Virus record (IMG/VR): IMGVR_UViG_2925891887_000006
Location: 1-51,857 of that record
Source of the DNA: a virus
Lineage: Duplodnaviria; Heunggongvirae; Uroviricota; Caudoviricetes
Strand: one strand, 5' to 3'
DNA: 51,857 bases
Numbering within the stretch: position 1 is the first letter of the stretch; every line of letters begins with the position of its first letter. A model generated the notes under the pieces. It saw only the letters and a list, made by a program, of their open reading frames with translations, had not been told where the DNA came from and did not search any database. Shown here piece after piece: positions 1,938-50,849 of this stretch. The position numbers and the translations under genes were made by a program.

Positions 1938-1957
1938 TACGTGGGCGTTTTTTCTAA

Positions 1958-3527: not shown

Positions 3528-3706
3528 GACTTCTCCTGTCGGGGTGGTTAGTTACGTCAATTGTGTCGTGGCTGACACAAGCACACTATCGGTGCTCAGT
3601 GTGTGGTGGCTGGCACAACGGGCGCTTGCGGTTATTCCGACGTGGCTATGAAAGCCAGCCAGATAAAAATGCCCACTGTTTCAGTCTGCTTTATGTCCCT
3701 GATGCG

Positions 3707-3894: not shown

Positions 3895-3927
3895 GTTACC
3901 CTTAATAAATAAGACTCACGCAAAGTC

Positions 3928-6980: not shown

Positions 6981-7261
6981 CTGGCACCTCCTTCAATCAG
7001 TGCGCAGCTGTGTGCAATATCCGTCAAATCTGCCCGCAGGTACTCCATCAGCGCGGCGACACCAGGCGCAAAGCCTGCGTCCAGTGCTCCGGCCTGAGAC
7101 GGGTATTCAGAAAAGAGAAGCTGGAGCATGTCGCAGGCATTTCTTGCGCGGGTCAGCTTTCCGAAACCGTCCTCTGACAACCCATAGGCAAAAGCACCGG
7201 TATTGTGTTTTTCAGGCAAAGTCTGGCCCTGAGCACCGTTGTGCCCGTTTGAAATATTCAT
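6977..7261 (-). CDS. Hypothetical protein, satellite early operon (epsilon position)
   Basis: 94-aa ORF overlapping the downstream gene start. Confidence 0.5.
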   Translation of the reverse strand: MNISNGHNGAQGQTLPEKHNTGAFAYGLSEDGFGKLTRARNACDMLQLLFSEYPSQAGALDAGFAPGVAALMEYLRADLTDIAHSCALIEGGAR

Positions 7262-7292
7262 TGTGGATTACTCCGTTTTCAGCGGTGTTTTG

Positions 7293-7652
7293 TCAGAGAA
7301 ACTTTGAATAGTGACCGTCATCAGGCTCAGCAGAACACCATATGCTACGCTCCCGCCAGCGGATAAATAGCACAGACGGATGCAGTGTCAGCGGGCCGGA
7401 ACCACTACCGCCTGCAGGAGCTGGTGCAGGCTTAAAGAGCGGTACATCAAACAGGCGCGTATATCGCTGTTCAAACCATGCCAGAGGGCAGGAAGAAAGC
7501 TGGTTGTCGCTGTCATGACGTATCAGCACTTCACAGCTGAATTCAGGATTAACCAGCGCCACAGAGGGCGAGGCTTCTATTAATCGGATAATCGTGACCG
7601 TCCAGCCACGTTCATGCTGCCAGCGTTCGCCGGGATGCGGATAATTACGCAT
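7293..7652 (-). CDS. Hypothetical protein, satellite early operon
   Basis: ORF-track frame; start placed at internal Met (MRNYPHPGERW) to limit overlap. Confidence 0.4.
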   Translation of the reverse strand: MRNYPHPGERWQHERGWTVTIIRLIEASPSVALVNPEFSCEVLIRHDSDNQLSSCPLAWFEQRYTRLFDVPLFKPAPAPAGGSGSGPLTLHPSVLFIRWRERSIWCSAEPDDGHYSKFL

Positions 7653-7821
7653 GTTCACCTCCGCAGGGAATGCGCCCGGCAAAGCTCAGTACATAGTCCG
7701 GGGCAAGTCTGCGCCGCGCTGATCGCTCGTTATCTGCGGTGATCCTTAACATTACCGGACGGGCATTACGTTGACTGCGGTTGATCGCCGCAAATAACCA
7801 GGTACACTTCTGTTTAGCCAT
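7645..7821 (-). CDS. Small basic protein, Icd/Kil-like (possible host cell-division inhibitor)
   Basis: 58 aa from internal Met MAKQKCTWLF; first gene of the leftward satellite operon. Confidence 0.45.
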   Translation of the reverse strand: MAKQKCTWLFAAINRSQRNARPVMLRITADNERSARRRLAPDYVLSFAGRIPCGGEHA

Positions 7822-7937
7822 CTTCGTTACCTCATATAACGTGCTGGTCAGACGCCTCGGTGGTGCTGCAAACACTCCGGGGCGTTGCTATTTTGTTTTT
7901 CTGTGTGTAATGTGTCATTACACATAAATACATTACA

Positions 7938-8132
7938 ATGGGTGTAATTGACGTGTCAACACACAAAAATGAAAGACGTGGGAATCCGCCATTCCAGTTC
8001 CGACTTGACCCTGAACTGCGTGAACTGATGGAACAAGCACAACAGCAGGATGGCGATGAATCGCTAGCGGCTTGGATCAAGCGCATTCTACGCAAAGAGT
8101 TACAAAGCCGAGGTTTAGAACCAAAGAATTGA
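7938..8132 (+). CDS. Ribbon-helix-helix (Arc/CopG-like) DNA-binding protein, candidate satellite repressor
   Basis: 64 aa; FQFRLDPELRELMEQA...AWIKRILRKEL fits a beta-strand plus two helices; divergent from the early operon, start embedded in palindromes. Confidence 0.5.
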   Translation: MGVIDVSTHKNERRGNPPFQFRLDPELRELMEQAQQQDGDESLAAWIKRILRKELQSRGLEPKN

Positions 8133-8181
8133 TTAATACGTTGGGGAGGCTTTTTTCTCCCCAGCTTTGTTAATATTGTCA

Positions 8182-8397
8182 TTACACTACTTCCTCCAAT
8201 CCTGCTGATTGAGCTTTAACCCACTGCCTAATTTCTTGTGCATCGTAAACAGATACCCGTTTTGAAATGCGTATAGATTTGGGAAATTCAGGATTGTTCT
8301 TTTCCCAGCGCCAGAGAGTAACCGTACTTATTTGCAAAAAGTCAGCAGTAGCTCGTGGGCGGGCATGTCCAGTGATAGGATAAGTTTTTAATGTCAT
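8182..8397 (-). CDS. alpA: AlpA/Vis-family transcriptional regulator
   Basis: 71 aa with HTH; typical partner of P4-type integrases. Confidence 0.8.
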   Translation of the reverse strand: MTLKTYPITGHARPRATADFLQISTVTLWRWEKNNPEFPKSIRISKRVSVYDAQEIRQWVKAQSAGLEEVV

Positions 8398-8499
8398 GAA
8401 ATTACCTGCCGTGTTATGTAATGAACACGGCAGATACTATGGGGATATCAAAATGCTGTGAAGGTAGTGTAATCAACTCTACCTGTAGATTGTTTCAGT

Positions 8500-9381
8500 C
8501 TACCCCTTTTGTTTTAATCCCGCATGATTAACCGCTAATCGTAATTTTCTTAAGATTTCTTGTTCATTAGTGATAAATATTGGAGGTAGCTCTCCTAAAT
8601 GTTTAATTATGGCGTTAGTCCACTTTTCAGGACTTATCTCTTTTCTTTCACCACGACATTCGCTTGGGTATTTTGCTAATATATATATGGCTGCATTTAA
8701 TAACCCCCCCCTATTTTTTGCATGATGCTCAGCAGTGTTATTTAATCGCTTGGGGATTTTAGGTTCAGATGAAATTCTTTTCGTAAGTAAACTTGGCATA
8801 GGAATTCCAGTTTTTACTGATTTCCATATTAACTCTAAATCTCTTCGCATGATAAGAAGATCTTCAAATGGAATATCAATGACCTTATTTCCTTCATATG
8901 AGGCCGTTGCCATCAAAACATTATCTCGTATTTTTACCGGTTTAAGCCTGAATTCATAATCTGGATCTATAGCTAATCCATTTTTTATGTCACTTATCAT
9001 ATCATCGGCGTACCAAATACCACAGGCAAATCCTATAATTTGAAGCCCATTTTCAAAATGTTCAAAGGAGTCATCTTTAAGGTCATACCATATTGTTGAA
9101 AATTCCATCTCTAGTGATTGATTAGTTAATACGGGATGAATTAAGTCAATTTCCATTTTCTGATTTTTATAGAGGAAATTAACATTAAATCTAACTGCAA
9201 GTCCATCCGCCTTGAATGCGATATTAAAAGCGCCTATTTCGTATAGGTGTAATAAATCATCAATCTCGCATTCTAATAGTCTTGAAGCGCGTTCAAATGA
9301 ACAATATTCTAATGGTGGTATTTTTTTGTCAATCCATAGATTTCCTAAGAATATAGTTTCATTCTCTTTTGAATGCTGCAT
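8500..9381 (-). CDS. Hypothetical AT-rich 293-aa protein between int and alpA (accessory cargo)
   Basis: Long ORF, low GC versus flanking int and alpA, no recognisable motif. Confidence 0.6.
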   Translation of the reverse strand: MQHSKENETIFLGNLWIDKKIPPLEYCSFERASRLLECEIDDLLHLYEIGAFNIAFKADGLAVRFNVNFLYKNQKMEIDLIHPVLTNQSLEMEFSTIWYDLKDDSFEHFENGLQIIGFACGIWYADDMISDIKNGLAIDPDYEFRLKPVKIRDNVLMATASYEGNKVIDIPFEDLLIMRRDLELIWKSVKTGIPMPSLLTKRISSEPKIPKRLNNTAEHHAKNRGGLLNAAIYILAKYPSECRGERKEISPEKWTNAIIKHLGELPPIFITNEQEILRKLRLAVNHAGLKQKG

Positions 9382-9411
9382 TATGACCTCTGTTTTAAAT
9401 TATAAGAAAAT

Positions 9412-10746
9412 TTAATTGATAATGTTAATACCTGATAAGTCATAAGGAGCATGAAATTCGTCCTTATTTAGTTCCAGATAATTAGACCACCATTGCATCA
9501 TTCTGCGGCGTTCCTGCATGTGCTGCGCAAGATGCACATATGCTGCCCGCACTTCGTTTCTTTCTTGGTGACTCATCTGCCGTTCAACTGCATCGCGTGA
9601 CCAGAGTCCTGATTCGGTCAGTGCAGAGCAGGCCATCGCCCTGAACCCATGCAAGCAAACATCACTTTGAGTGTCGTAACCCATCGTTCGCAGTGCTTTA
9701 TTAACTGTGTTTTCGCTCATCGGTTTATATGGGTTGCTGTCACCGGGGAAAACCAGCAGATATTCACCACTGATTTTCCTTATATCCTCCAGTACCCCGA
9801 TAGCCTGACTAGATAGCGGGACATAATGAGCAGCCCCCATCTTTGCACCCCGCTCTGAGAATTTAACCCCTGCGATCTCTTCACGTTGTCCTGGTATCGT
9901 CCATAGCCCATTTTCAATGTCGATCTCCTCCCATCTGGCATGTCGTAGTTCGCTGGATCGCACAAAAGTGTGCAGGGAAAATAGAACTGCTAGGCGAGTC
10001 AATGGTCTTCCCGTGTAACTTCTCGTTTTCGCTAACAGTTCAGGTAAACGTTCGAGAGGTAGTGCGGGGCGATGTCGTACTTTGGGGGTCGTAATTGCAC
10101 CTTTTAGATCGTGGGCAGGGTTGTAATCGACAATTCCACGTTGCACGGCATAACGGAAGATGCTCGTCATAGTGGTTTTTACCCGGCTCGTTGTGGCACC
10201 AATTCCTTTCTCAGTCATCTCAACCAGCATCGGCATCAAGTCACGGGTTTTGAGCGTATCGATAGGCTTTGAACCGATGGCAGGAAAGAGGTGGTTTTCC
10301 ATTTCTCGGAGAATTTTTTTACGGGTGATCTCTTTCCACTCAGGATGCCCTATCGTTCTACTATGCCACTCTCTGGCAACACTCTCGAACGTGGGGGAAA
10401 TTGGGTCTTCCTTTTTGGGTTTCTTTGCTTCGCGAGGATCACGACCATCGGCTAGTAGTTGCCTGGCTTCATCACGCCGTTTCCGCGCTGTTGCAAGTGA
10501 GACATCTGGGTAGACCCCTAATGCCAATGTCACTTGTTTTCCATCAAAACGATAATTCATACGCCAGTATTTTCCACCAGTCTTTCGTACCAGTAGATAC
10601 AAACTCCCTCCATCGGTAAGTTTGTAATCATTGGTCTTCGGCTTGGCGTTTTCTATCTGTTTGGGGGAAAGCACATTAATGGCCATATCTGTACTCATTT
10701 TGGTAGATTGATGGTATCTGCATATCGAACTGGGGAATACCATCAC
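9412..10746 (-). CDS. int: Tyrosine integrase, P4-type
   Basis: 444-aa ORF (true start may be an internal Met); N-terminal arm-binding-like region and C-terminal catalytic region; adjacent to att core copy. Confidence 0.9.
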   Translation of the reverse strand: MMVFPSSICRYHQSTKMSTDMAINVLSPKQIENAKPKTNDYKLTDGGSLYLLVRKTGGKYWRMNYRFDGKQVTLALGVYPDVSLATARKRRDEARQLLADGRDPREAKKPKKEDPISPTFESVAREWHSRTIGHPEWKEITRKKILREMENHLFPAIGSKPIDTLKTRDLMPMLVEMTEKGIGATTSRVKTTMTSIFRYAVQRGIVDYNPAHDLKGAITTPKVRHRPALPLERLPELLAKTRSYTGRPLTRLAVLFSLHTFVRSSELRHARWEEIDIENGLWTIPGQREEIAGVKFSERGAKMGAAHYVPLSSQAIGVLEDIRKISGEYLLVFPGDSNPYKPMSENTVNKALRTMGYDTQSDVCLHGFRAMACSALTESGLWSRDAVERQMSHQERNEVRAAYVHLAQHMQERRRMMQWWSNYLELNKDEFHAPYDLSGINIIN

Positions 10747-10872
10747 TTATACCATCACGAGGTTGTAATGTCATGAAATTAACTGAAATGAAAATCAGGC
10801 CGATTCGGTGATAACTTACTGTTTTTTTAAGTGGTTATGTAATGAAGTGAAATGTAGAGAAAGGTCTTTAAA

Positions 10873-10885
10873 GTGTCCCCTGCAG
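10873..10885. repeat. att core copy (GTGTCCCCTGCAG) at the satellite/prophage junction
   Basis: 13/13 identical to the 3' end of argW at 50777..50789. Confidence 0.6.
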
Positions 10886-10958
10886 ACATCTACTTGACGC
10901 GGCAGGGGATTGATTGGAATGGTGTTTTTTAGATGTGAAAAATATTTTACCCGCTATT

Positions 10959-11159
10959 TTACCCATTGGCGCGGCTTAAGAGCTTATTTTTGAATTCACA
11001 ATGGTCACGATATAACCATCTTGCTCGACCGTGGATAACTTTGGCTTTAGGCAGGTCGCCGGACTTAATCCGGTCGTAGATGAAGGTTTTACCGAAGCCA
11101 GTATCAGCCATGATGAATTTCAAATCAACCAGGGAATCAGGCTGTAGTTCGTGTTGCAT
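10959..11159 (-). CDS. torI: TorI-type excisionase (Xis)
   Basis: 66 aa; matches E. coli TorI as recalled; sits at the prophage end opposite int. Confidence 0.75.
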   Translation of the reverse strand: MQHELQPDSLVDLKFIMADTGFGKTFIYDRIKSGDLPKAKVIHGRARWLYRDHCEFKNKLLSRANG

Positions 11160-11200
11160 GAGTGCTATCTCCGAATAGGGAATCGAACCTGCAAATCAGG

Positions 11201-20381: not shown

Positions 20382-20543
20382 ATGACAAAACGTCGTAAGA
20401 AATACCAGGAAAAAGAAGAGATTCGACACCCTGATTCACCTGAGGGATTAGTGGTAGCCGCAGCAAATAACAGGGCGTTCGCAGAGCGCCTTGTTGGTGT
20501 TTACAGACTAGCCAAAGCAGGAGTGAAACATGGGCGTCGTTAA
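20382..20543 (+). CDS. Small basic hypothetical protein
   Basis: Internal Met MTKRRKKYQEK of ORF 20337..20543. Confidence 0.35.
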   Translation: MTKRRKKYQEKEEIRHPDSPEGLVVAAANNRAFAERLVGVYRLAKAGVKHGRR

Positions 20544-21420
20544 GTTAGCTGATTACAGGCATAACCCTGTACAACATCAGGAGGCATCCAGTATGGGGTA
20601 TGTCTCTATACACCGCCAGTTTATGGACAGCAGGCTCTATAAGGACTCTCAGGCAGTACATCTTTGGCTTCACTTAATCCTCAAGGCTAATCACGAATCT
20701 ACTGTCGTCAATACGGATATCGGTCCGATAACTGTTGATCGCGGTCAGATGATAACTGGACGCCCGTCGCTGGTCAGAGAAACATTCATCCCCGACAACA
20801 AAGTTCGGAGCTTATTACGGACTTTTGAGTCGAAAGGGATGCTTAATATTTGCTCGATGGGGAAGAAATTTAGCCTGTTTACAATCGTTAAATATGACGA
20901 TTTTCAGGCAAAAAATTGTCCAACGGTTGTCCAACGGTTGTCCAACGCAAACACCAGTAATGGCGCGGCTCTCAGCGGAGATTGTCCAACGGTTGTCCAA
21001 CGGTTGTCCATAAACAATAATATAAATAATATCTCTAATACTGACGTATTAGAGAGTGCCACAGCAGACAAAAAGTCTGACAAGAAAAAACCTTCCGTTA
21101 GCTGTCAGGATGTTGTCGATGCTTACCACGAAATCCTTCCTGAAGCGCCAAGAATCCGCGCACTGAATGACAAGCGTAAAAACCAGATCCGAACGTTCTG
21201 GCGCAAAGCCGGAGTGATAACCCGCCAGCTTGACGGGCATGGGTTCACAATGCAGGACTGGAGAAATTATTTGAGCTACGTAGGCGAAAATTGCCGATGG
21301 ATGTTCGAAGAGCGTCCAAACCATCAACGCGGAACTGTCTGGCACAAAAAGGGATTTGATTTCCTGCTTAACGATAATACCTACCTGAAAGTTCGTGAGG
21401 GTGAACACGATGACCGATAA
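20530..21420 (+). CDS. Replication initiator (lambda O / P22 gp18-like) with ori iterons inside the gene
   Basis: 296 aa; internal peptide repeat NCPTVVQRLS reflects the DNA iterons; followed by a helicase gene. Confidence 0.8.
   Translation: MGVVKLADYRHNPVQHQEASSMGYVSIHRQFMDSRLYKDSQAVHLWLHLILKANHESTVVNTDIGPITVDRGQMITGRPSLVRETFIPDNKVRSLLRTFESKGMLNICSMGKKFSLFTIVKYDDFQAKNCPTVVQRLSNANTSNGAALSGDCPTVVQRLSINNNINNISNTDVLESATADKKSDKKKPSVSCQDVVDAYHEILPEAPRIRALNDKRKNQIRTFWRKAGVITRQLDGHGFTMQDWRNYLSYVGENCRWMFEERPNHQRGTVWHKKGFDFLLNDNTYLKVREGEHDDR
20916..21014 (+). repeat. Origin iterons: TTGTCCAACGG x3, spacer, x3, then AT-rich tract
   Basis: Copies at 20916, 20927, 20938, 20982, 20993, 21004, followed by ATAAACAATAATATAAATAATAT. 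Confidence 0.75.
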
Positions 21421-22846
21421 TTTTTATGCGCCGCCCCATAGCATCGAGGCAGAGCAGGCGGTGATTGGTGGATTGCTTCTGGATGATGACAGCAGTGAGC
21501 GCGTCCGGAAGGTTCTGGCGATGCTGAAGCCTGATTCATTTTACAGCCGGCCACACAAAATCATTTTCGAAGAAATAACCAGAATGCACCGTGAGCAAAA
21601 GCCAGTAGATGGCCTGACGCTTTTCGATGAACTGGAGCGTAAATCGTTAACGGCGTCTGTTGGCGGTTTTGCTTATATCGCTGAGATCGCAAAGAACACG
21701 CCAAGCGCAGCAAACATCGTTGCCTATGCAATGCAGGTTCGCGAAACCGCAATGGAACGCTACGCCATCAACCGCATGACTGAAGCGACGGAATTGCTCT
21801 ATTCCCGCAACGGAATGACTGCAACGCAGAAGTACGAAGCTATTCAGTCGATTTTCACGCAACTGACAGACCATGCAAAAACCGGATCGCGTCGCGGCCT
21901 TCGCTCATTTGGTGAGGTCATGGAAGACTGGGTTAGCGACCTTGAGAAGCGATTTGACCCGTCAGGCGAACAACGGGGAATGAGCACAGGGATCCCATCG
22001 CTGGACAGGATGCTGTCACCGAAAGGTCTGGTGAAAGGCTCTCTGTTTGTCATTGGCGCTCGCCCTAAGATGGGGAAAACGACGCTATACAGCCAGATGG
22101 CAATCAACTGCGCAGTGCATGAGAAAAAGCCCGCTCTGATGTTCAGCCTTGAAATGCCCGGTGACCAGATACTGGAAAAACTGGTAGGACAGAAGTCAGG
22201 TGTTAACCCGAATATTTTTTACCTTCCAGCGACAAATGACGCTGATGACGGCTATCAGGGTGATTACGATGGTGACTTCAACAGGGCGATCGAAACAGCC
22301 AATCGCTTGAGTGAAATCGACCTGCTTTACATCGACGACACGCCGGGATTATCTCTGGCTCAAATCGTCAGTGAAAGCCGTCGAATCAAGCGAGAAAAAG
22401 GATGTGTTGGCATGATTCTGGTCGATTACCTGACACTAATGACCGCTGAGAAGGCCGATCGCAACGACCTTGCTTACGGCATGATCACCAAAGGACTGAA
22501 GAACCTTGCCAAAGAGCTTGATTGCGTTGTTGTGCTTCTGACACAGCTTAACCGCGCATTGGAAAGCCGAACCAATAAACGCCCATTACCAAGTGACTCG
22601 CGCGATACAGGACAGATTGAACAGGATTGCGATTATTGGGTGGGGATCCATCGTGAAGGTGCTTTTGATGACAGTGTTCCACCTGGTGAAACCGAACTAA
22701 TCCTTCGTCTCAATCGTCATGGCAATACCGGCACGGTGTATTGCATTCAGGCAAATGGCGCTATTTATGACACAGACCAACAGTCTGCTGAAATGCGCCG
22801 CCGTGAACGCGAGGAACCGCAGTCCAAGAAGAAAGGAGGATTCTGA
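21395..22846 (+). CDS. Replicative DNA helicase (DnaB-like, P22 gp12-type)
   Basis: Walker A GARPKMGKTT; DnaB-like N- and C-domains. Confidence 0.9.
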   Translation: MRVNTMTDNFYAPPHSIEAEQAVIGGLLLDDDSSERVRKVLAMLKPDSFYSRPHKIIFEEITRMHREQKPVDGLTLFDELERKSLTASVGGFAYIAEIAKNTPSAANIVAYAMQVRETAMERYAINRMTEATELLYSRNGMTATQKYEAIQSIFTQLTDHAKTGSRRGLRSFGEVMEDWVSDLEKRFDPSGEQRGMSTGIPSLDRMLSPKGLVKGSLFVIGARPKMGKTTLYSQMAINCAVHEKKPALMFSLEMPGDQILEKLVGQKSGVNPNIFYLPATNDADDGYQGDYDGDFNRAIETANRLSEIDLLYIDDTPGLSLAQIVSESRRIKREKGCVGMILVDYLTLMTAEKADRNDLAYGMITKGLKNLAKELDCVVVLLTQLNRALESRTNKRPLPSDSRDTGQIEQDCDYWVGIHREGAFDDSVPPGETELILRLNRHGNTGTVYCIQANGAIYDTDQQSAEMRRREREEPQSKKKGGF

Positions 22847-32448: not shown

Positions 32449-34614
32449 ATGGCCGACGAAAACAGACTCAATTCCATTCTGTGTAAGTTTGACGCAGACT
32501 GGATGGCGAGCGATGAAGCCAGAACCGAGGCGACAAATGACCTGTTTTTTAGCCGAGTGTCGCAATGGGATGACTGGCTATCAAACTACACCACCCTGCA
32601 ATATCGCGGACAATTCGATGTTGTTCGCCCAGTGGTCAGGAAACTGGTCGCAGAGATGCGCCGGAACCCTATCGACGTTCTCTTCCGGCCCAAAGACGGC
32701 GCTAATCCTGATGCAGCCGATGTGTTGATGGGGATGTATCGTACTGATATGCGCCATAACACGGCAAAGATTGCCGTTAACGTTGGCGTTCGTGAGCAGA
32801 TAGAGTCCGGCGTTGGTGCATGGCGTCTGGTCACACAGTACGAAGACAACGATCCAACAAGCAACAATCAGGTAATCAGACGCCTGCCAATCCATGAGGC
32901 CTGCTCACACGTCATATGGGACGCCAACAGCAAGCAGATGGATAAGAGCGACGCTAAGCACTGCACGGTGATTAACGCCTTGTCACGCAATGGCTGGAAA
33001 GAGTTCGCAGAGGATTACGGTATTGATCCGGACACCTTGCCATCTTTCCAGAATCCGAACGACACATGGCTGTTTCCGTGGGTATCGAATGATGTCGTCT
33101 ACGTCGCTGAGTATTACGAGGTAGAAGAGAAGAAGGAGAAAGTCTTCATCTACCGCGACCCGCTGACAGGTGAGCCGGTCAGCTATTACCAGCAGGATAT
33201 CAAAGACGTCATCGACGACCTGGCTAATCGTGGATTCATTAAGGTAGCAGAGCGCAAGGTGAAGCGTCGGCGTGTGTATAAGTCGATCATCACCTGCACG
33301 CAGATACTGAAAGACCGCGAGAAGATAGCTGGAGAGCATATCCCAATCGTTCCAGTGTATGGCGAATGGTCATTCGCTGGTGACAAGGAGTGCTACGAAG
33401 GAGTGGTAAGGCTGACGAAAGACGGTCAGCGCCTTCGTAACATGATCATGTCATTCAACGCCGATATTGTTGGTCGTTCACCGAAGAAGAAACCGACCTT
33501 CTTCCCTGAGCAAATCGAAGGCTACGAATACATGTACGGTGGAAATGATGACTATCCGTACTATCTCCAGAACAGGACTGATGAAAACGGTAACGACCTG
33601 CCGATTGGTCCAATCTCCTACATGGAAAACCCTGAAGTGCCGCAAGCCAACGCTTACATGCTTGAGGCTGCCACCAACGCAGTGAAAGAGGTGGCTAGTC
33701 TTGGCGTGGATGCACAGGCAGCAAACTCTCAGGTCTCTTTCGATACCGTCAATCAACTGAACATGCGGTCAGACCTTGAGACATACGTGTTTCAGGATAA
33801 CCTGGCTACCGCAATGCGGCGTGATGGCGAGATTTATGCCTCAATGGTCAATGATATTTATGACATCCCTCGTCATGTAACGCTGACACTTGAAGATGGA
33901 AGCGAGAAAGACGTTCAACTCTACGCGCAAGTTGTCGATTACCAGTCCGGTAATGTGGTCACACTCAACGACATTCGCGGTCGCTACGAGTGCTATATAG
34001 GAGTTGGACCATCCTTCCAGAGCATGAAGGAACAGAACCGCGCAGAGATTCAGGAGTTACTCACCAAGGTTCCGCAAGGTACTCCAGAGTTCCAGATGCT
34101 GATGCTGCAATACTTCACGCTGCTTGACGGTAAAGGCGTCGAGATGATGCGAGAGTATGCGAACAAGCAACTGGTGATGATGGGGCTGAAGAAACCAGAA
34201 ACACCTGAAGAGATGGAGATGGTGCAGCAGGCACAACAACAGCCGCAGCAGCCATCAGCAGAGCAAATTCAGGCGCAGGGTATCCTTCTGCAAGGTCAGG
34301 CTGAATTGCTCAAGGCAGAGAACCAACAGGCGCAGATTCAGGTTGAAGCTGCCAAGGTTGAAGCCCAAAACCAACTCAACGCCGCGAAGATTGCAGAAAT
34401 CTTCAACAATATGGACCTCGACAAGCAGGCAGAACTGCGTGAGTACCTCAAGCTCGTAGGTCAATTCCAGCAACAGCGCAGCAAAGATGCTCGTGCTAAC
34501 GCTGAGCTGCTTCTTAAAGATGCAGACCAGACTCATTCACAACGCATGGATTTCGCGAATCTTATGCGTCAAGTTCAAATCCCCTCCGGCGGAGTAGCCG
34601 AGACACCTCAATAA
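32449..34614 (+). CDS. Portal protein (P22 gp1-like)
   Basis: 721 aa; long stretches match the P22 portal as recalled. Confidence 0.9.
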
Positions 34615-34627
34615 GAGAGAGTTAATC

Positions 34628-35539
34628 ATGGAACAAACCACCGACATTCAGGCTTCTGAAGAATTAACCCTGCCCGGCAATCATGCAGCGGCATCTGTTG
34701 ATGGCTTAGTTGTCGATAATGCCAACGACAACGCAGGTCAGGAAGAAGGCTTCGAGATTGTCCTGAAAGACGATGAGAAACCAAAACAAGACCCGGCAAC
34801 TAATGCTGAATTTGCCCGTCGCCGCATAGAACGCAAACGCCAGCGTGAGCTTGAGCAGCAGATGGAAGCGGTTAAGCGTGGAGAGTTGCCGGAGCACCTG
34901 CGGGTGAACCCTGAGTTACCAAAACAACCAGACCCTAACGATTATCTTTCCGAAGATGCACTGGCTAAGTACGACTATGACCAGAGCCGCGCCCTGGCTG
35001 CCTTCCAGCAGGCAAACAGTGAATGGCAGATCAAGGCTATGGACGCACGAAGCCAGGCTGTAGCCGAGCAGGGCCGCAAAACTCAGGAGTTCACCCAGCA
35101 ATCAGCGCAATACGTCGAGGCAGCCCGTAAGCACTACGACGCAGCGGAAAAGCTCAATATCCCTGACTATCAGGAGAAAGAGGATGCATTCATGCAACTG
35201 GTGCCGCCAGCAGTCGGTGCCGACATCATGCGCCTCTTCCCGGAGAAATCCGCTGCTCTCATGTATCACCTTGGTGCTAATCCTGAGAAAACACGCCAGT
35301 TGCTGGCGATGGACGGGCAATCCGCGCTGATTGAACTCACTCGACTGTCAGAACGTTTAACTCTCAAGCCTCGAGCCAAGCCTGTTTCAGAAGCCCCGTT
35401 ACCTGATGAACCCATTCAGGGACACGCTGTTGCTGCAAATATCTCTGCGATTGAAAAGCAGATGGAAGCGGCAGCAAACAAAGGGGATGTAGAGACATAC
35501 CGCAAGCTCAAGGCGCAACTGAATAAAGGAATTCGATAA
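34628..35539 (+). CDS. Scaffolding protein (P22 gp8-like)
   Basis: 303 aa, charged and helical; between portal and coat. Confidence 0.8.
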
Positions 35540-36834
35540 TGGCATTAAATGAAGGTCAACTGGTCACGTATGCTCTGGATGAAATCATCGAAACCATCCA
35601 GAACCTGACGCCAATGGCGTCCAAAGTGACAAAATACACCCCTCCGGCAGAATCCATGCAGCGTTCAAGCAACACCGTGTGGATGCCTGTTGAGCAGGAA
35701 GCGCCAACCCAGACTGGCTGGGATTTAACTGGCAACGCAACAGGGATTCTGGAACTCTCCGTGAAATGCAACATGGGCGATCCGGATAACGATTTCTTCG
35801 AGCTTCGTGCAGATGACCTGCGTGATGAGCGTTCTTACCGTCGCCGCATCCAGGCATCCGCCAAAAAACTGGCGAATAACATTGAGTCAGCGATTGCCAA
35901 ACAGGCAACTGAAATGGGCTCGCTTGTTGTTCACGATACCCGCGCAATTGGTCCATCTACTGGACTGTCTGGCTGGGATTTTGTGTCTGATGCAGAGCGC
36001 CTGATGTTCTCCCGTGAGCTAAACCGCGATATGGGCATCAGTTACTTCCTGAACCCTGACGATTACCGCAAAGCAGGACGCAACCTGGTAGATGGTGACA
36101 TCTTCGGGCGCGTTCCTGAAGAAGCGTATCGCAACGGTACCATTCAGCGTCAGATTGCTGGCTTTGATGAAATTCTTCGCTCACCGAAACTTCCGGCTGT
36201 TACCAAGTCAACCGCTACTGGTGTAACTGTTTCTGGTGCGCAGAAGTTTAAGCCGCAGGCATACACCCTTGATACCGATAGTAACAAAGAGAACGTCGAT
36301 AACCGTGTTGCAACGGTGACCGTATCCTCCACCACCGGGTTTAAGCGCGGCGACAAAATCAGCTTCACTGGTGTGAAATTCCTGTCTCAGATGGCGAAGA
36401 ACGTGCTGACTGATGATGCGACTTTCTCAATCACCCGTGTGATCGATGGTACTCACATCGAAATCACGCCGAAGCCGATTGCGCTTGATGACGCGTCACT
36501 GACAAAAGAAGAGAAGGCTTACGCTAATGTAAACACCTCTCTTGCTGATACCACTCCGGTAAACGTTCTGAACGTGGCAACAACCACCGCTAACGTGTTC
36601 TGGGCTGATGACTCAATCCGCCTGCTGTCTCAACCGATCCCGGTAACCCATGAACTGTTTGCTGGCATGAAAACGTCTTCCTTCAGCATTCCTGGTATTG
36701 GTGTTAACGGCATCTTCGCAACGCAGGGTGATATCAACACTCTGTCTGGTAAGTGCCGTATTGCTGTGTGGTATTCAGCATGTGCTGTACGACCAGAGGC
36801 AATTGGTGTTGGTCTGCCTAACCAGACCGCGTGA
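35539..36834 (+). CDS. Major coat protein (P22 gp5-like)
   Basis: 431 aa; matches P22 coat as recalled. Confidence 0.9.
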
Positions 36835-36842
36835 TAACCAGA

Positions 36843-36866
36843 GGGAGCTTAGGCTCCCTTTTCTAT
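36843..36866 (+). terminator. Intrinsic terminator after the coat gene
   Basis: GGGAGC-TTAG-GCTCCC followed by TTTTCTATT. Confidence 0.65.
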
Positions 36867-36877
36867 TGGAGATACCA

Positions 36878-37483
36878 ATGAGCATAATGATTTTTCAGGC
36901 TGGCGGAGATACCAAAATCTGGGGGCGCAAGCTGAAAACGAAAACCGTTGATCCTGATGATGTAGCTGTGCACTTAGCAAATGGCTGGTATAAGCACCCT
37001 GACGATGTTCCTGATGCTCCTCTTGTTGGTGATCAAATTGGGAGTGTTGGCGGAGGTGAAACTTCCCCAGTTGATATGGGCGAAGTGTCCGACGGTTATC
37101 ACACTTTTAACGAGCTTTACGCTCACCGAGTGCGCCTCTTCTCATCGCTGATGCATGCTTACGCTGAGCTTTCGTGGTGGTCTCGCAAACACAGTGACGG
37201 TGAAGAGTGGGATGGCTGGATCATTGCTGGTATCACCACTCCAGAAGGCGAAATCACTTATCACCTACCTGTTGAAGAAATCGAGTTCCTTCCTGAAGGT
37301 ACTGAGCTTGAGTTCGGGAAAGAGTGGGATGGTCATGAAGCAAATGATGTTCTTGGACGACTCCTGAGTTTGCGTCCGGCTATTGCAGAGCCAGAGCCAG
37401 AGCCAGAGCCAGAAGAAAAACAGCGTAAAAAGCCTGGTCGAAAACCTAAGGCGGCAGCAGATGAACCTGACAACGAAGGGTGA
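36878..37483 (+). CDS. Hypothetical acidic protein with (EP)n repeat tail, post-coat moron
   Basis: Start at Met [10 protein letters not shown] after the terminator; GAGCCA x4 hexamer repeat at 37388..37411. Confidence 0.5.
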
Positions 37484-37961
37484 TTTAGTCCTTGCGGCAT
37501 TACGTAAGCTCGGTGTGGCATCAAATGCCACGTTAACAGATGTCGAACCGCAGTCTATGGAAGACGGCGTCAACGACCTTGAAATGATGATGGCTGAATG
37601 GCTTGGCGGTGATGCGTCACCTGGTATCAACGTTGGCTACATTTTTGCTGATGCAGATGTCGCTCCGGATCCGGGCGATGAGCACGGTTTATCAAATAAC
37701 GCTATCAATGCCGTCATTTTTAACCTTGCCTGCCGCATTGCTCCAGATTATGCGCTGGAAGCGTCTGCAAAACTTATAACCACTGCCAGATACGGGAAAG
37801 AGCGACTCGTCAAACTGTCTGCAATGGACAGAGCAAAAGCCGCTAAATGTAAGTCCGGTTATCCAAACCGTATGCCTGTCGGTAGCGGTAACCAGTTGGC
37901 GAAGTGGAATGGTTGGAATTACTTCCACCGGAAGGAACCTTGCGATAACGGGGGCGAATAA
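37461..37961 (+). CDS. Head-completion/tail accessory protein (P22 gp4-like)
   Basis: 166 aa from internal ATG ([10 protein letters not shown]...); matches gp4 as recalled. Confidence 0.8.
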
Positions 37962-39380
37962 ATGCCTATTCAGCAACTTCCGCTTATGAAAGGTGTCGGC
38001 AAAGACTTCCGAAATGCCGACTATATCGACTATCTGCCAGTGAATATGCTGGCTACACCCAAAGAAATCCTGAACAGCAGCGGATATCTTCGCTCATTCC
38101 CGGGCATTGCCAAACGTTCTGATGTGAACGGTATATCGCGCGGCGTCGAGTACAACATGGCGCAGAGTGCTGTTTATCGCGTGTGTGGTGGCAAGCTGTA
38201 TAAGGGCGAAAGTGAAGTCGGTGATGTTGCCGGAAGTGGTCGTGTATCAATGGCGCATGGTCGGACATCTCAGGCTGTAGGCGTTAATGGTCAACTGGTC
38301 GAGTATCGCTATGATGGCACGGTTAAAACCGTCTCAAACTGGCCTACAGACAGCGGATTCACGCAGTATGAGTTAGGCTCAGTCCGTGACATTACGCGTT
38401 TACGTGGGCGTTATGCGTGGTCAAAAGACGGCACTGATTCATGGTTCATCACTGACCTTGAAGACGAATCGCATCCTGACCGCTACAGCGCACAATATCG
38501 CGCAGAATCGCAGCCGGACGGCATCATCGGAATCGGAACATGGCGAGACTTCATCGTCTGCTTTGGTTCATCGACGATTGAATATTTTTCCCTGACAGGT
38601 GCAACCACCGTTGGTGCCGCTTTGTATGTCGCCCAGCCATCACTGATGGTGCAGAAAGGCATTGCCGGAACCTACTGCAAAACGCCGTTTGCTGACTCGT
38701 ATGCGTTCATCAGCAATCCGGCAACAGGCGCGCCGTCTGTGTACGTCATCGGCTCCGGTCAGGTATCACCAATCTCCAGCGCGAGCATTGAGAAAATCCT
38801 CCGCTCCTACACTGCTGATGAACTGGCTGATGGCGTGATGGAGTCTCTGCGATTTGATGCGCATGAGCTGCTGATTATCCACCTTCCTCGCCATGTTCTC
38901 GTGTACGACGCATCTTCAAGCGCCAATGGTCCGCAATGGTGCGTACTGAAAACAGGACTGTATGACGATGTGTACCGCGCTATCGACTTCATTTACGAAG
39001 GCAATCAGATAACGTGCGGCGATAAGCTGGAATCGGTGACCGGGAAATTGCAGTTCGACATCAGCAGCCAGTACGACAAGCAACAGGAACACCTTCTGTT
39101 TACTCCACTGTTCAAAGCGGATAACGCCAGAGTTTTCGACCTTGAAGTTGAATCTTCAACTGGCGTTGCGCAGTACGCCGACCGCCTGTTCCTCTCTGCA
39201 ACCACTGACGGCATAAATTACGGGCGTGAGCAGATGATTGAGCAGAATGAACCGTTCGTTTACGACAAACGCGTTTTGTGGAAGCGAGTAGGGCGCATCA
39301 GGAAAAATGTTGGCTTCAAATTGCGCGTTATCACGAAGTCACCTGTCACTCTGTCTGGTGCTCAGATAAGGATTGAGTAA
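37962..39380 (+). CDS. Tail accessory protein (P22 gp10-like)
   Basis: 472 aa; near-identical to gp10 as recalled. Confidence 0.9.
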
Positions 39381-40228
39381 TGGCGGATTCGAATCTCAAT
39401 AAGCCGGTAATCACTCAGGCTACACGGCTCGATACATCAATCCTTCCACGCAATATCTTCTCGCAGTCGTATCTGCTTTACGTTATCGCACAGGGCACTG
39501 ATGTTGGTAACGTGGCTAACAAAGCCAACGAGGCCGGACAGGGCGCTTATGACGCACAAGTCAGGAACGATGAGCAGGATGTGATTCTGGTCGATCACGA
39601 AATTCGACTGGCATCGGCTGAAGCGAAGATACAGGACCACGAAACAAGGATCACTAACGCAGAAGCGGCGATAGTCAACCTTGATTCACGATTAACGACA
39701 GCAGAAAACGATATTGATTATCTGACGGATGAAGTTGCCGCCATTCAAAACACGCTTTCAGACCATGAAACGCGCATTAATGCTCTGGAGTATGCCACTA
39801 CGCGCAAGAAGTCAGAGGTTGTTTACTCTGGCGTATCTGTAACCATCCCGACAGCGCCGACCAACCTTGTTAGCCTGCTGAAAACGCTCACGCCGTCATC
39901 CGGCACGTTGGCACCATTCTTCGACACCGTTAACAACAAGATGGTTGTGTTCAACGAGAACAAAACCCTGTTCTTCAAGCTGTCGATTGTCGGGACGTGG
40001 CCCAGCGGAACCACCAACAGATCAATGCAGCTAACCTTTTCCGGCTCTGTTCCTGACACGTTGGTCAGCAGTCGTAATGCGGCGACAACAACCGACAACA
40101 TCCTGTTAGCTACGTTCTTCAGCGTGGATAAAGACGGCTTTCTTGCCACAAATGGCAGTACGTTAACCATCCAGTCAAATGGTGCGGCGTTTACTGCCAC
40201 AACCATCAAGATAATCGCGGAGCAGTAA
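39380..40228 (+). CDS. Tail needle (P22 gp26-like) with extended C-terminal knob-type domain
   Basis: N-terminal 60 aa match gp26; C-terminal part differs and is longer than P22 gp26. Confidence 0.8.
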
Positions 40229-42722: not shown

Positions 42723-45491
42723 ATGGCTAATTACCGTGATTTGTTAGAGCAGGCTGGCGCACGTTACGGTGTGCCAGAAGGGTTGATGACTGCACTGGGT
42801 GCCAAGGAGTCTTCTTACAACCCTGCCGCAGTAAGCTCCGCCGGGGCTGTAGGATTGACTCAGGTCATGCCTGGGACATGGCGTGATATGGGTTATACCG
42901 ATGAGCAAATGCAAAACCCAGAATATCAGGCTGACGCTGGTGCGCGCTATCTGGCAAAGATGTACCAGCAGTTTGGTAACTGGCGTGACGCTCTTCAGGC
43001 TTATCACGACGGTCCCGGCAACGTTATGAAGGCAAAGCGTGGTGAATATACGCCAGGACCTGAAGGCCGCGGTTACGTTGATGAACGCTTTGCTCAATGG
43101 GCGGGTGACCCGGTGACAGACTCAACAGTCGAACAGCGCGCCACCTCTGCAAAGGTACATCCTCAGCAAGACCCTAACAACCCGTTTGCACAACTGGAAG
43201 CACAGTCATCCGAACAAGTATCGGCATCAGGCGTGCAGTCAGACCCAAATAATCCATTTGCTCAGATTGAGCAGCAGGCAGCCAGTCAGCAGCCACCTCA
43301 ACCCGTAAGTTCTGCCGCACCGAAACCTGTTCAGCAACAAACAGTTAATCAGGCCAATAATGAACCAGCACGTGAAGAACCATCATTGATGCAACAAGCT
43401 GGCGATTGGCTCACAGGTGGTCAAAGTGCAGGGCAAATTGCAGAGCAGGCTGGTCGTGGTCTGGTAAACATACCATTTGACGTATTGCAGGGTGGCGCGA
43501 GTCTGATTAATGCAATCAGTCAGGGGCTTGGTGGGCCAAAAGTATTGGATGATGTCTATCGTCCAGTCGACCGACCGACAGATCCTTACGCGCAAGCTGG
43601 AGAGTCAATAGGCGGTTATCTTGTTCCTGGAGCAGGTGTAACTGGAAACATGGTCATTGGTTCTCTCGCTGACGCGGCGAATCAACGGGGTGATTTTGCC
43701 GAAAATGCCGCTATTAATGCCGGACTTAACATTGCTACGCATGGCCTGATAAATGGCGTTACCCATGGTGTTCGTGGTGCATCAAATATAATTAGTGGCA
43801 ATAAAACATCTGCACAGAGAGCGACCACTGCGGCAACAGAAACATCACCATTCTCCGGTACTGCGCCAACAGAAACATCACCATTCTCCGGTGATGCCGC
43901 TGCAGCAACAAATCCTGCGGTTCATGCCGCAGAGGCAAGAGCAGCACAAGGTGTACCAATGACGCCTGCGACGAGGGACCCAGAGGAGGTCGTCCGCACA
44001 GTAGCAGCACAAAAAAGGCCAAATCTCGCTTCATCGCTTGATGAACTAGATATCAATCCTCAGGCTGAAGTTCTGGAGTCTGCTGAAAGGCTTAATGTTG
44101 ATTCATTACTCCCTTCACACTTTTCCGGGAACGAGCAATACAAGGCAGTTGAGCAAGCAATCAAGTCCCGTGCGGGTTCTGCTCTACGGGTGCAGGAAAA
44201 TGAAGCAATCAGGCAACTAGCACAGGGCGCGGGGGAGATAATTGATCGCGTTTCCGGTGCAAAAGATGCTCTTGGTATGAGCGACAAGTTTATTGATACG
44301 ATCAATGGAAGAATGTCTGCGCTGATGAAACGAAGCGACCAGCTTTATCGCAATGTTGAAAAGGCGATGCCTGCAGGTGCAAAAATTGATGCGCCATCAA
44401 CAAGGTCAATGCTCAAACAGGTGGCAGAAGATCTTGGCGGGATGAAAAACCTTGACCCTATTGAAAAGAGAGTCTTTCGGGCAGTTAATCCAGGCAAGAA
44501 CGGCGCATTAACTTATGCAAATCTCAATAAGCAACGACGACTTGTTGGTGATGCACTTCATAAGAAGTCTGGACCATATAAAGATGCTGATCGCGCTGCT
44601 TTATCGAGGCTTTACGGTTCGCTCGCCGATGATCAAAAGACGGCGCTGTCAGAGACAAATGCATTACGTGATTTTGAAGTTGCTCAGAGGCTTGTTCAGA
44701 TGCGAAAAAGCATGGAAGAGCAAATGATTAATCTAACTGGCAGAACGCTGAACGGTGATGTTTCTCGCAAAGCAACTACAGCACTACAGGCAATGTCGAA
44801 AGGCGATGCCAAAGGATTTCGTGAATTGATGCAAAACACGCCGTCCAGGAAGCTAAGAACCGAGCTACTGGGAACAGGTCTTCGGGATATGCTTTCGAAC
44901 GGAAAACGTGGCGCTGATTTTAATCCTGCAGGGTTTGCTGACTGGTATCAAAACATGTTAGCAAACGGGCAGATGCGCAATCTTGCCCGACATTTACCAA
45001 AAGAGACTATGTCAGGTCTGAACGATGTATATAAGGTCGCAAAGGCTATCAAAGATGCAAAATCTTACGAGATAACTACAGGAAGACTAAACGAGTTCGT
45101 CAAACGGTTTAATCGCGTCACTGCGGCAAATGAATTTGTTGCTAACCATGCCCAACGCATTGGCACTGCGGTTGGTTCAACTGTGTCAGGACCGTTCAGT
45201 GCAGTAGGTGCTGTTGCTGGGTCAGAAATTGGGGCAAAAGTCGCCAGCAAAATCAGGGCGATGGGCGGCGCTGCATCAATGGAATCTGCAGAAAAGCTAA
45301 TTAGCTCACCAGAATTCCAGAAAGCAGCAAGGCTGGCAGTAAAACAAGCACCAGAAAGCATCGTTGATACAACTGTAAGACGCTCTTCTGCTTGGCGCTC
45401 GTTTTACAACTCACTTCCAGAATCAGATAAGAAAACCATATCAAGGCTAGGCATCATGTACTGGATGAACAGTGATGATAACCAGAAGTAA
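42723..45491 (+). CDS. Ejection protein (gp16-like) fused to N-terminal lytic transglycosylase (SLT) domain
   Basis: 922 aa; N-terminal [27 protein letters not shown] is an SLT signature. Confidence 0.8.
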
Positions 45492-49455: not shown

Positions 49456-50613
49456 TCACTCCACCTTTTCATCAAGCCAGTCCGCCCACCACTGCATCAT
49501 TTCTCTGCGCTTATCGAGATACTGAGCATGGTTGTAAATCCCGCGCACAGATCCGCCGTTGGCATGTGCAAGTTGCACTTCAATAGCGTCAGCAGGCCAT
49601 TCGTGCTCGTTCATAATCGTGCTGAATTCATGCCTGAATCCGTGACCGCTTTCCAGACCTTCATAGCCGATTTGTTTGATCACAAGCAATACCGCGTTCT
49701 CGCAGATTGGCTTCTTCTTATCGTTGCGCCCGGCAAAAACAAACTCTGATACTGGTTTAGTGATGGAGCTTAGCGTAGTGAGAAGTTCAACCACCTGGTC
49801 TGACATCGGGACCACATGAATTTTGCGTCCTTTCATCACACTGGCGTCGATGGTGATAATCCTGTTTTCAAAATCGACGTTCTTCCATAGCATGGAACGA
49901 AGCTCTTTCGTTCTTAGGGCAGTGTAGCGTAAAACTTTGGTCGCAATGAGCGATACGATACTTCCTGAAAATGTTGCCAGTGCTTTGTTGAATGCCGGGA
50001 TCTGGTCTGCAGGAAGAAACGGGAAGTTCTTCTTGCGGTATCCCTTCATGGCGTCAGCAAGGTCAGGTGCCGGGTTATATTTAGCCCTACCAGTGACAAT
50101 AGCGTAACGAAAAACCTCGCCGCATCTTCTGCGGGCTTTGTTGGCTCGCTCCATTGCACCGCGATCTTCAAATCTGCGGATTACTTCCAGCAGTTGCATC
50201 GGCTCAATATCCTGAATCTCAAGGCCGCCGATGATGGGTAAAATGTCGTCATCAAACATTTTGGCAAGTTCAGTTGCATAGCCTACTGACCAGACTTGCT
50301 TCTTGTGCTCGTACCATTCCTTGTAAATCGCACTAAAGGAATTGTTGTTAGACGAAGCCTTTTTCGCTTTTACCGGATCGATGCCAACCGAGATGTCTTT
50401 CCTCGCGGTCCATGCTTTATCTCTTGCCTCCTGCAAAGTCATTAGCGGATATTTTCCTACGGTCAGGATTTTCTCCTTACCGTCAATCTTGTAGCGAAGC
50501 TGCCATACCTTTTTCCCTGACACAGGGACATAAAGGTACAGGCCATTACCATCGAGAAGGCGGTATGGTTTTTCTTTCGGCTTTGCTGCTTCAATCTGCT
50601 TAACGGTGAGCAT
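49456..50613 (-). CDS. intS: Tyrosine integrase, IntS type, adjacent to argW
   Basis: Start at MLTVKQIEAAK (internal Met of ORF 49456..50649); matches E. coli IntS as recalled. Confidence 0.85.
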   Translation of the reverse strand: MLTVKQIEAAKPKEKPYRLLDGNGLYLYVPVSGKKVWQLRYKIDGKEKILTVGKYPLMTLQEARDKAWTARKDISVGIDPVKAKKASSNNNSFSAIYKEWYEHKKQVWSVGYATELAKMFDDDILPIIGGLEIQDIEPMQLLEVIRRFEDRGAMERANKARRRCGEVFRYAIVTGRAKYNPAPDLADAMKGYRKKNFPFLPADQIPAFNKALATFSGSIVSLIATKVLRYTALRTKELRSMLWKNVDFENRIITIDASVMKGRKIHVVPMSDQVVELLTTLSSITKPVSEFVFAGRNDKKKPICENAVLLVIKQIGYEGLESGHGFRHEFSTIMNEHEWPADAIEVQLAHANGGSVRGIYNHAQYLDKRREMMQWWADWLDEKVE

Positions 50614-50774
50614 GGGTAAAAATCCGGTGGGTAAAATTATTTTATCCACTTTTTACCCGTCATGGAGTGCGGCTGTCAACGATCTGACGCGAACCATGAC
50701 GAACTGCGAATCTACGGAAGGCTTGATATTCAGGGGATTTTGCGGACTGGTACGGATGAGAGCGAACTGATAAA

Positions 50775-50849
50775 TGGTGTCCCCTGCAGGAATCGAACCT
50801 GCAATTAGCCCTTAGGAGGGGCTCGTTATATCCATTTAACTAAGAGGAC
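50775..50849 (-). tRNA. argW: tRNA-Arg (anticodon CCU)
   Basis: Minus-strand GTCCTCTTAGTTAAATGGATATAACGAGCCCCTCCTAAGGGCTAATTGCAGGTTCGATTCCTGCAGGGGACACCA; cloverleaf with CCU anticodon and encoded CCA. Confidence 0.92.
50777..50789. repeat. att core within the 3' end of argW (GTGTCCCCTGCAG)
   Basis: Identical 13-mer at 10873..10885. Confidence 0.6.

Follow-up and report, generated by a model that had tools for sequence, protein, structure and literature searches.

The DNA analysed here is the 51,857-nucleotide IMG/VR virus record IMGVR_UViG_2925891887_000006 (referred to throughout, at its full length, as the window), which contains the late region of a P22-like (Lederbergvirus-type) prophage. 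The subject of this study is an acidic open reading frame (ORF) of 201 aa (ATG at 36878, TGA at 37481-37483; pI 4.66, 22.4 kDa) located between the coat gene and the head-completion gene gp4 (Table 1). A 666-nt stretch spanning this ORF is 100% identical to the chromosome of Escherichia coli MS6192. A previous sequence-only reading of the locus had described a hairpin followed by a U-tract, the 201-aa acidic ORF, four GAGCCA units within it and an overlap with the start of gp4, all of which we recovered at the same coordinates. On balance, and with modest confidence, we favour the interpretation that the ORF is the long allele of an accessory slot gene between the coat gene and gene 4, that its product is a dispensable late factor, and that the WDGH domain it carries probably serves in counter-defence or host manipulation.

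While the sequence-only reading could not place the protein in a family, our searches identify it as a homologue of orf186 of phages L and ST64T and of gene 6 of epsilon34. The full-length ORF matches PHROG 3769 (E 6e-100), with phrog_1175 matching residues 1-44, and the Pfam family PF25311 (WDGH) aligns to residues 68-165 over model positions 1-97 of 97 (E 1.4e-39; 134.7 bits versus a cutoff of 27). Using tblastn, we found sequences with 60-62% identity over residues 1-165 at the same position in Salmonella P22-like phages, where the matches correspond to the annotated genes orf186 (L, ST64T), gene 6 (epsilon34, g341c) and ORF54 (ST104). The order coat-ORF-gp4 is also found in epsilon34, P22 and a Xenorhabdus prophage, and the exact ORF protein is present on 126 public contigs. 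PADLOC and NCBIfam returned no match to the ORF, a search of positions 36500-37700 against Rfam returned only a chance match to a long non-coding RNA (E 0.5), and literature searches on the WDGH domain, PF25311 and P22 orf69 retrieved nothing relevant. The gene is thus known but uncharacterised, and the ORF is a further member of a known slot and domain family. Previous analysis of epsilon34 reported that gene 6 homologues vary markedly in length, that the P22 version has an internal deletion, and that the role of gene 6 is unknown, the gene being non-essential in P22 (PMC2629481, citing Eppler 1991); the phage L genome paper lists orf186 as "function unknown".

The protein has a modular organisation (Table 1). 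An N-terminal domain (N-domain) and a disordered linker come first, then WDGH, which is optional, then a (Glu-Pro)n spacer of acidic character, and finally the basic, AT-hook-like patch and a last segment that is acidic. AlphaFold2 assigned per-residue confidence scores (predicted local distance difference test, pLDDT) of 80-88 to residues 1-40 and about 95 to residues 70-160, and predicted disorder for the linker (residues 48-63) and for the tail from residue 186 onwards; no solved structure was found to resemble this model. A profile search with the N-domain returned 421 clusters, of which the 120 listed are proteins of 44-82 aa without a Pfam domain, from Enterobacterales where an organism is named. 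In the comparison with epsilon34, the proportions of differing nonsynonymous and synonymous sites (pN/pS) were 0.25/0.89 for the whole ORF, 0.17/0.94 for the WDGH domain and 0.33/0.89 for the N-domain; synonymous sites are saturated in both the epsilon34 and the Xenorhabdus comparisons, and for this reason we give pN and pS in place of dN/dS. Because pN is low while synonymous sites are saturated (pS 0.89-0.94), these comparisons indicate that the ORF product is a protein under purifying selection. The basic patch takes the forms RKKPG[RP]KPKA, KRGRKPKA and KKRGRP[TA]KV across lineages. In the window (K-K-P-G-R-K-P-K) it lacks the canonical R-G-R-P core of the AT-hook and has no match to the Pfam AT_hook model, whereas the canonical KKRGRP[TA]K is present in two homologues (P0033 and P0045).

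Table 1. Features of the prophage late region around the 201-aa ORF (window coordinates)
Feature	Position	Strand	Basis
Portal gene	32449-34614		
Scaffold gene	34628-35539		
Coat gene, P22-type; left flank common to both alleles	35539-36834	+	Pfam P22_CoatProtein, E 1.6e-165
Post-coat GC-rich hairpin (9 bp stem, TTAG loop) and interrupted U-tract, intrinsic-terminator shape	36840-36868	+	fold; conserved position
Shine-Dalgarno GGAG of the ORF, 6 nt before its ATG	36868-36871	+	read from sequence
ORF under study, 201 aa: long (WDGH) allele of the "gene 6 / orf186 / orf69" slot	36878-37483	+	
N-terminal domain, aa 1-45: beta-hairpin and helix; invariant G9, G36, W37, P41; slot-specific	36878-37012	+	pLDDT 80-88
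Disordered acidic linker, aa 46-67	37013-37078	+	pLDDT < 50 at residues 48-63
WDGH domain, aa 68-165, motif W150-D151-G152-H153	37079-37372	+	Pfam PF25311; pLDDT about 95
Right-hand mosaic junction; alleles about 96-100% identical from here on	37383	+	short-allele matches begin at window 37383-37404; phage matches on flanks only
(GAGCCA)4 hexanucleotide variable-number tandem repeat (VNTR), encoding (EP)4 = E171-P178	37388-37411	+	four perfect units
Basic patch RKKPGRKPK, aa 183-191, AT-hook-like	37424-37450	+	conserved across lineages
gp4 head-completion (tail accessory) gene, 501 nt	37461-37961	+	Pfam P22_Tail-4, E 1.2e-58, from residue 2; same 501-nt gene in RefSeq annotation
gp10 gene	37962-39380		
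Needle gene	39380-40228		

Long and short alleles and the GAGCCA repeat

To place the ORF among its relatives, we used a census of 5,426 complete E. coli genomes, 216 of which contain this prophage region. The long (WDGH) allele was found in 41 of these 216 genomes and a short allele in 173. Translated from the closest phage genomes, the short allele is an ORF of 74-138 aa in which the N-domain (MTHMIFRHGDMKKWKG...GWF.HPDDL) is fused directly to (EP)n, followed by the same tail; P22 orf69 has this short design, and epsilon34 gene 6 the long one. The closest phage genomes by DNA (IME10, Dewey, Louie, HZ41, APC_JM3.2 and CurroJimenez) match the window only on the flanks; IME10, Dewey, Louie, HZ41 and APC_JM3.2, all isolated phages, lack the WDGH part. 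The point at which identity between the long and short alleles resumes is the left edge of the GAGCCA array. N-domain type and WDGH presence are also shuffled, as long forms from Hafnia and Klebsiella have an N-domain of the type that goes with the short allele in E. coli. The earlier view of the ORF as an extra, variably present segment therefore holds for its WDGH part and not for the ORF slot, which is always occupied; likewise, absence from close relatives, which the sequence-only reading had named as a result that would speak against it, is seen for the WDGH part and not for the slot.

The same arrangement extends to the Salmonella phages. Epsilon34 gene 6, L/ST64T orf186, ST104 ORF54 and P22 orf69 occupy the same slot, overlap the start of gene 4 in the same way and share the N-domain, and the long alleles carry the same WDGH domain, with 61% identity over residues 1-165. 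The homologues from epsilon34, L, ST64T, ST104 and P22 also have the same RKKPG[RP]KPKA basic patch and show the same long/short dimorphism (PMC2629481). In contrast, the perfect (GAGCCA)n array is a feature of the E. coli lineage, and its place is taken by "RPKEPATKE" in epsilon34 and "VEADDVKP" in P22.

Tandem Repeats Finder reports the array at 37386-37413 as 4.7 copies with 100% matches, which by a rough estimate is far beyond chance (about 1e-6 such arrays expected in 52 kb). Long-allele relatives that are otherwise at least 96% identical have 1, 2 or 3 units, compared to 4 in the window. The short-allele loci that we counted by sequence have 1, 2, 3, 4, 5, 8, 8, 16 and 33 units, every one of them GAGCCA, bearing out the earlier prediction that an in-frame hexamer would vary the length of the tail. 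In a sample of 48 short-allele genomes, taken at regular intervals along the ranking, match lengths range from 371 to 563 bp in steps of 6, corresponding mostly to 1-7 units with a long tail. Being a perfect array whose copy number differs among near-identical relatives, this repeat is a VNTR. In 14 of 14 sequenced variants the ORF frame is intact and the distance from the array to gp4 is constant, and the 6-nt unit sets the array apart from phase-variable on/off switches: because the unit is in frame, the array would never switch the gene off and would only alter spacer length. Its length probably changes by replication slippage, which would only lengthen or shorten a proline-rich spacer, and the purity of even the 33-unit array would favour frequent slippage over old duplications.

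EP runs of varying length together with a basic patch also occur in homologues from Serratia, Klebsiella, Enterobacter, Hafnia and Erwinia, and one homologue lineage has a GT dipeptide repeat in place of EP. A low-complexity acidic spacer ahead of the basic patch thus seems to belong to the general design of the slot, its length being poorly constrained. A similar composition is found in the (Glu-Pro)n(Lys-Pro)m spacer of TonB, in which an acidic EP run is likewise followed by a basic Pro/Lys-rich stretch. This likeness is compositional only, the ORF product having no homology to TonB, no membrane anchor and no periplasmic context. Such a composition would be expected to give an extended spacer, and the proline-rich rod of TonB can reportedly be shortened with little effect. 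The literature that we checked on the gene does not mention (GAGCCA)n copy-number polymorphism, the array appearing only as an unexplained "repeat_region" in record MG197996.

The post-coat hairpin and the overlap with gp4

The hairpin begins 5 nt past the coat stop codon (36832-36834) and has the sequence AGAGGGAGC-TTAG-GCTCCCTTT at 36840-36861, continuing into TTTTCTATT. Its 9-bp stem includes a 6-bp GC-rich core and is closed by a 4-nt loop, and the 61-nt hairpin region has a folding energy of -19.4 kcal/mol (z = -2.8 versus shuffled sequences). With a GC-rich stem-loop placed directly before a U-tract, the element has the form of an intrinsic terminator; a consensus terminator scanner missed it because the stem extension uses up the T-run. 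The description of this terminator as strong is generous, because its U-tract is interrupted (UUUUCUAUU, compared to UUUUUUAU in relatives).

A hairpin and U-tract 3' of the coat gene are also found in P22, epsilon34, the Xenorhabdus prophage, IME10 and Dewey, with stems that differ between lineages (GGGAGC/GCTCCC in E. coli, GGGGC/GCCCC in P22 and epsilon34, GGGGGC/GCTCCC in Xenorhabdus). The P22 record BK000583 annotates a stem_loop there as "similar in location to stem-loops in HK97 and lambda", and the post-capsid stem-loops of lambdoid late operons (P22, HK97, lambda) likewise consist of a GC-rich hairpin and U-tract directly after the major capsid gene, though the stem in the window (GGGAGC/GCUCCC in the transcript) differs from the GGGGC/GCCCC of P22. 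The sequence-only reading had taken the hairpin as the ORF's own terminator boundary. However, because it precedes the short allele, the long allele and P22 orf69 alike, sequence comparison identifies it as a conserved 3' element of the coat gene, whatever allele follows, and not as a boundary of the 201-aa ORF. Since gp4, gp10, gp26 and the essential genes that follow them are all located past the hairpin, late transcription presumably has to read through it, so that the hairpin would not insulate the ORF. Our consensus promoter scan found one weak promoter-like match among the downstream late genes (38288-38315, inside gp10). The usual reading of such hairpins is that they stabilise or attenuate the abundant coat/scaffold message, and this would be the more likely role of the hairpin in the window.

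The ORF starts 10 nt beyond the hairpin and U-tract, leaving a gap of 43 nt to the coat gene, and its last 23 nt overlap gp4 (ATG at 37461), which encodes a 166-aa protein. The Shine-Dalgarno sequence of gp4 (TAAGG, 37447-37451) is embedded in the last codons of the basic patch, and the GAGCCA array sits 50 nt upstream of the gp4 ATG and does not overlap gp4; a TTG at 37383, which would place the array inside gp4, is a mechanical ORF start only. In all loci examined the slot is occupied and the stop codon of its ORF overlaps the gp4 start. Translation of gp4 is probably coupled to that of the ORF, because the ORF ends 23 nt inside gp4.

Several database annotations of this region differ from the gene structure described above. 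In the Dewey (2819-3412) and IME10 (2819-3424) records, gp4 is given an N-terminal extension of 31-35 aa from an ATG immediately to the left of the array, and the annotation either omits or miscalls the genuine short ORF in the EP frame. We considered and rejected such an upstream start, which would have the array read as (QS)n, since the window has ATT in place of that ATG, the Pfam alignment of gp4 begins with the 166-aa protein, and it is the EP frame that is conserved. The Prokaryotic Genome Annotation Pipeline (PGAP) calls the intact long allele either a truncated coding sequence from M67 or later, or two "incomplete" pseudogene fragments. Disruption of the long allele in RefSeq E. coli genomes was also rejected, as all five translate as intact ORFs of 195-199 aa, distinguished only by the number of EP units and by a few substitutions; the truncated and pseudogene calls are annotation artefacts. 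The 90%-identity cluster of the ORF product also holds many 166-aa gp4 proteins, which inflates its member count to 1929. This mixture apparently arises as an artefact when genes that overlap are clustered, and we rejected 1929 as a figure for abundance because the cluster includes gp4 proteins. In relatives of this prophage, then, the array misleads annotation, resulting in spurious extended gp4 calls and in truncated or "pseudogene" calls for intact ORFs.

The WDGH family and competing interpretations

WDGH (PF25311) is a large phage domain family, with 3,612 representatives at 50% identity (E <= 1e-3), and has no assigned function and no solved structure. The ORF keeps all of its near-invariant residues (D72, G73, H75, Y81, H83, R84, H105, D107, G108, Y128, H129, W150, D151, G152, H153 and R161). 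Family alignments show little or no variation in the W-D-G-H motif or in the DGYHTF..LY.HR block (D72-G73-Y74-H75-T76-F77...Y81-H83-R84). To assess the company that this domain keeps, we searched the 150 best WDGH representatives with Pfam. The most frequent partner domains were Sequestin (PF21825), found in 6 proteins, and Lar restriction-alleviation, found in 3, followed by an Acb2/Tad1 hairpin, a Tad2-like domain, YodL, three exonuclease or RNase H-type families and two zinc-ribbon families, found once each. Individual examples include P0102, which combines Tad2-like, WDGH and Sequestin domains and whose gene follows the lysis genes in a Serratia prophage; P0075, P0082 and P0109, which combine WDGH and Sequestin; and P0243, which combines Lar and WDGH. 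The WDGH genes of Klebsiella phage SopranoGao and Bacillus phage Izhevsk sit among small accessory genes, and in the latter (3962-5162) a NADAR-superfamily gene comes directly after the WDGH gene Izhevsk_116. The NADAR superfamily is linked to ADP-ribose chemistry, and this adjacency is a possible functional neighbourhood for WDGH.

Sequestin is a 3'cADPR sponge that was found through its fusions to Tad2 and Acb4, in a study that does not mention WDGH (Tal et al., 10.1101/2025.07.12.664507). Because WDGH is fused elsewhere to anti-defence domains, the logic that led to Sequestin makes it a candidate counter-defence module, and a role of this kind is our best guess by association. The comparison with the sponges of Tal et al. 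(Tad2, Acb4, Sequestin) is one of domain partnership, WDGH being fused elsewhere to Tad2-like, Sequestin and Acb2/Tad1-hairpin domains. WDGH has no sequence or fold similarity to these sponges, its many invariant His, Asp and Arg residues suit an enzyme as well as a binder, and the ORF itself contains no sponge domain, WDGH being the only domain detected in it by Pfam and no homology to a characterised anti-defence family being found. We also considered whether WDGH is the Acb5 of the Tal et al. preprint and rejected this identity, as Acb5 forms short tetramers with key residues W38, R10 and H61 and is found mainly in Streptomyces phages. Compared to WDGH proteins elsewhere, which are stand-alone or fused, the domain here sits inside a gene of the late operon, between the slot-specific N-domain and a tail that holds the repeat and the basic patch.

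These observations lend themselves to the interpretation given at the outset. The ORF lies within the late operon with its own Shine-Dalgarno sequence, and its product would be a dispensable accessory factor made late in infection and not a capsid component. The WDGH domain would most likely act in counter-defence or host manipulation by binding or cleaving a small ligand that resembles a nucleotide. A number of points weigh against this interpretation: an anti-defence domain accompanies WDGH in only ~7% of the proteins sampled, and evidence from fusion partners is circumstantial; most known counter-defence genes are expressed early, making a late-operon site beside head genes unusual; and the core of N-domain and tail exists without WDGH, so that the slot has some function that the anti-defence idea leaves unexplained. 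In addition, conservation of the basic patch may partly reflect the gp4 ribosome-binding site embedded in it, and slippage is deduced from population polymorphism. A more elaborate version, which we regard as unlikely, holds that WDGH has a counter-defence activity so far unrecognised, either binding or cleaving a bacterial immune signalling nucleotide or alleviating restriction. As part of a tethered module made from the late operon, with a globular head, a hypervariable EP rod and an AT-hook-like tail, it could enter the capsid bound to the DNA and come into action as the next infection begins.

We also weighed several readings that differ more fundamentally. One is that the ORF encodes an optional virion-associated protein, either a Dec-like surface decoration or an internal cargo (tethered to DNA by its basic tail, for example) that is delivered to the next host. 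Its late-operon site between the coat and head-completion genes would agree with this, as would the basic AT-hook-like tail with its canonical RGRP core in some lineages; an injected counter-defence protein would fit late expression, and optional decoration proteins such as Dec are likewise missing from some relatives. However, gp13, the tailspike and a 15-kDa Dec band are the only differences on gels between virions of epsilon34, which has the long allele, and of P22, which has the short one, leaving no epsilon34 band attributable to the gene (PMC2629481), an indirect indication. One and the same coat protein (WP_001196946.1) occurs with both long and short alleles. No similarity to known decoration folds or sequences was found, and WDGH is found elsewhere in non-structural contexts, namely early or accessory regions of unrelated phages and the region after the lysis genes of a Serratia prophage. 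We therefore consider a virion protein, including one packaged in low copy, quite improbable and do not retain the earlier suggestion of a capsid decoration. Of comparably low probability, in our estimation, is that the slot serves mainly in gene expression, with a short ORF that reloads ribosomes past the hairpin and delivers them to the gp4 start, and with WDGH and the EP array as tolerated passengers. The constant occupancy of the slot, the invariable overlap of its stop codon with the gp4 start in the loci examined, the gp4 Shine-Dalgarno sequence inside the basic patch, the dispensability of the gene in P22 (PMC2629481) and an apparently unconstrained repeat length (1-33 units) are what this reading would predict. 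It is difficult to reconcile with purifying selection on the amino acids of both domains in the face of saturated synonymous sites, with the invariant residues and confident fold of the N-domain across 421 clusters, or with the strong conservation of WDGH over its 3,612 representatives, and if P22 is viable without the gene, coupling cannot be essential for gp4.

The repeat itself could be viewed as an adaptive contingency locus, in which EP array length would adjust how far the basic tail extends from the globular part and would be under selection in each host separately. Pure arrays of extreme range between near-identical flanks, and the independent recurrence of EP spacers in several enterobacterial lineages, are consistent with this possibility; yet the array is always in frame, which precludes on/off switching, and the broad distribution of mostly 1-7 units with a long tail is what neutral slippage predicts, and the comparable TonB rod reportedly tolerates shortening, so that we hold adaptive tuning to be doubtful, and a shade more so than the two readings above. 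Least probable of all, to the point that we give it little credence, is the moron proposed from the sequence alone, that is, a gene transcribed autonomously from the prophage to the benefit of the lysogen. The WDGH segment is indeed extra DNA compared to most relatives, and a terminator-shaped hairpin lies just upstream, but that hairpin is there irrespective of the allele. The 43-nt gap is filled by the hairpin and the Shine-Dalgarno sequence, and a consensus scan, a weak test, found no sigma-70-like site in or near it (35654-38287). There is no terminator 3' of the ORF, whose stop codon lies inside gp4 and overlaps its start, and the G+C content of the ORF (49.8%) is the same as that of its neighbours (51.1% and 49.7%).

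Surrounding elements and implications

Elsewhere in the window, two tyrosine integrase genes (9412-10746 and 49456-50649) and a P4-alpha-like primase gene encoding Zn-ribbon, Toprim and DUF927 domains (3928-6600) all lie on the minus strand. A tRNA-Arg(CCT) is located at 50775-50849, and its 3' end is partly copied at 10874-10885 (TGTCCCCTGCAG) and 11180-11195 (GGAATCGAACCTGCAA). Taken together, these features of 1-11200 and 49456-50849 suggest that a satellite, or an element resembling an island, has integrated at a single tRNA site in tandem with the P22-like prophage. Two further repeats were noted. The 11-mer TTGTCCAACGG forms two perfect arrays (2.9 and 2.6 copies) at 20916-21010, within an ORF (20530-21420) that has no Pfam match and is located just upstream of a DnaB-type helicase gene (21395-22846); these arrays are probably replication-origin iterons within an initiator gene. 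A 33-bp tandem duplication (96% matches) at 43827-43892 is in frame and adds 11 aa to a 922-aa ejection protein with an N-terminal SLT transglycosylase domain (42723-45491).

As a gene, the 201-aa ORF is ordinary, in that its slot, length variation and dispensability are already on record from P22-like phages, and the protein carries a WDGH domain label in RefSeq. Two aspects are modestly new: the in-frame VNTR at a mosaic junction, and the testable link of WDGH to anti-defence modules. The array of 1-33 units is a highly polymorphic marker that can serve to type a prophage common in E. coli and to measure rates of slippage. The recurrent fusion of the large WDGH family to four different anti-defence modules makes it a concrete and cheaply testable counter-defence candidate, for which P22, L and epsilon34 constitute a genetically tractable natural pair of plus and minus alleles.

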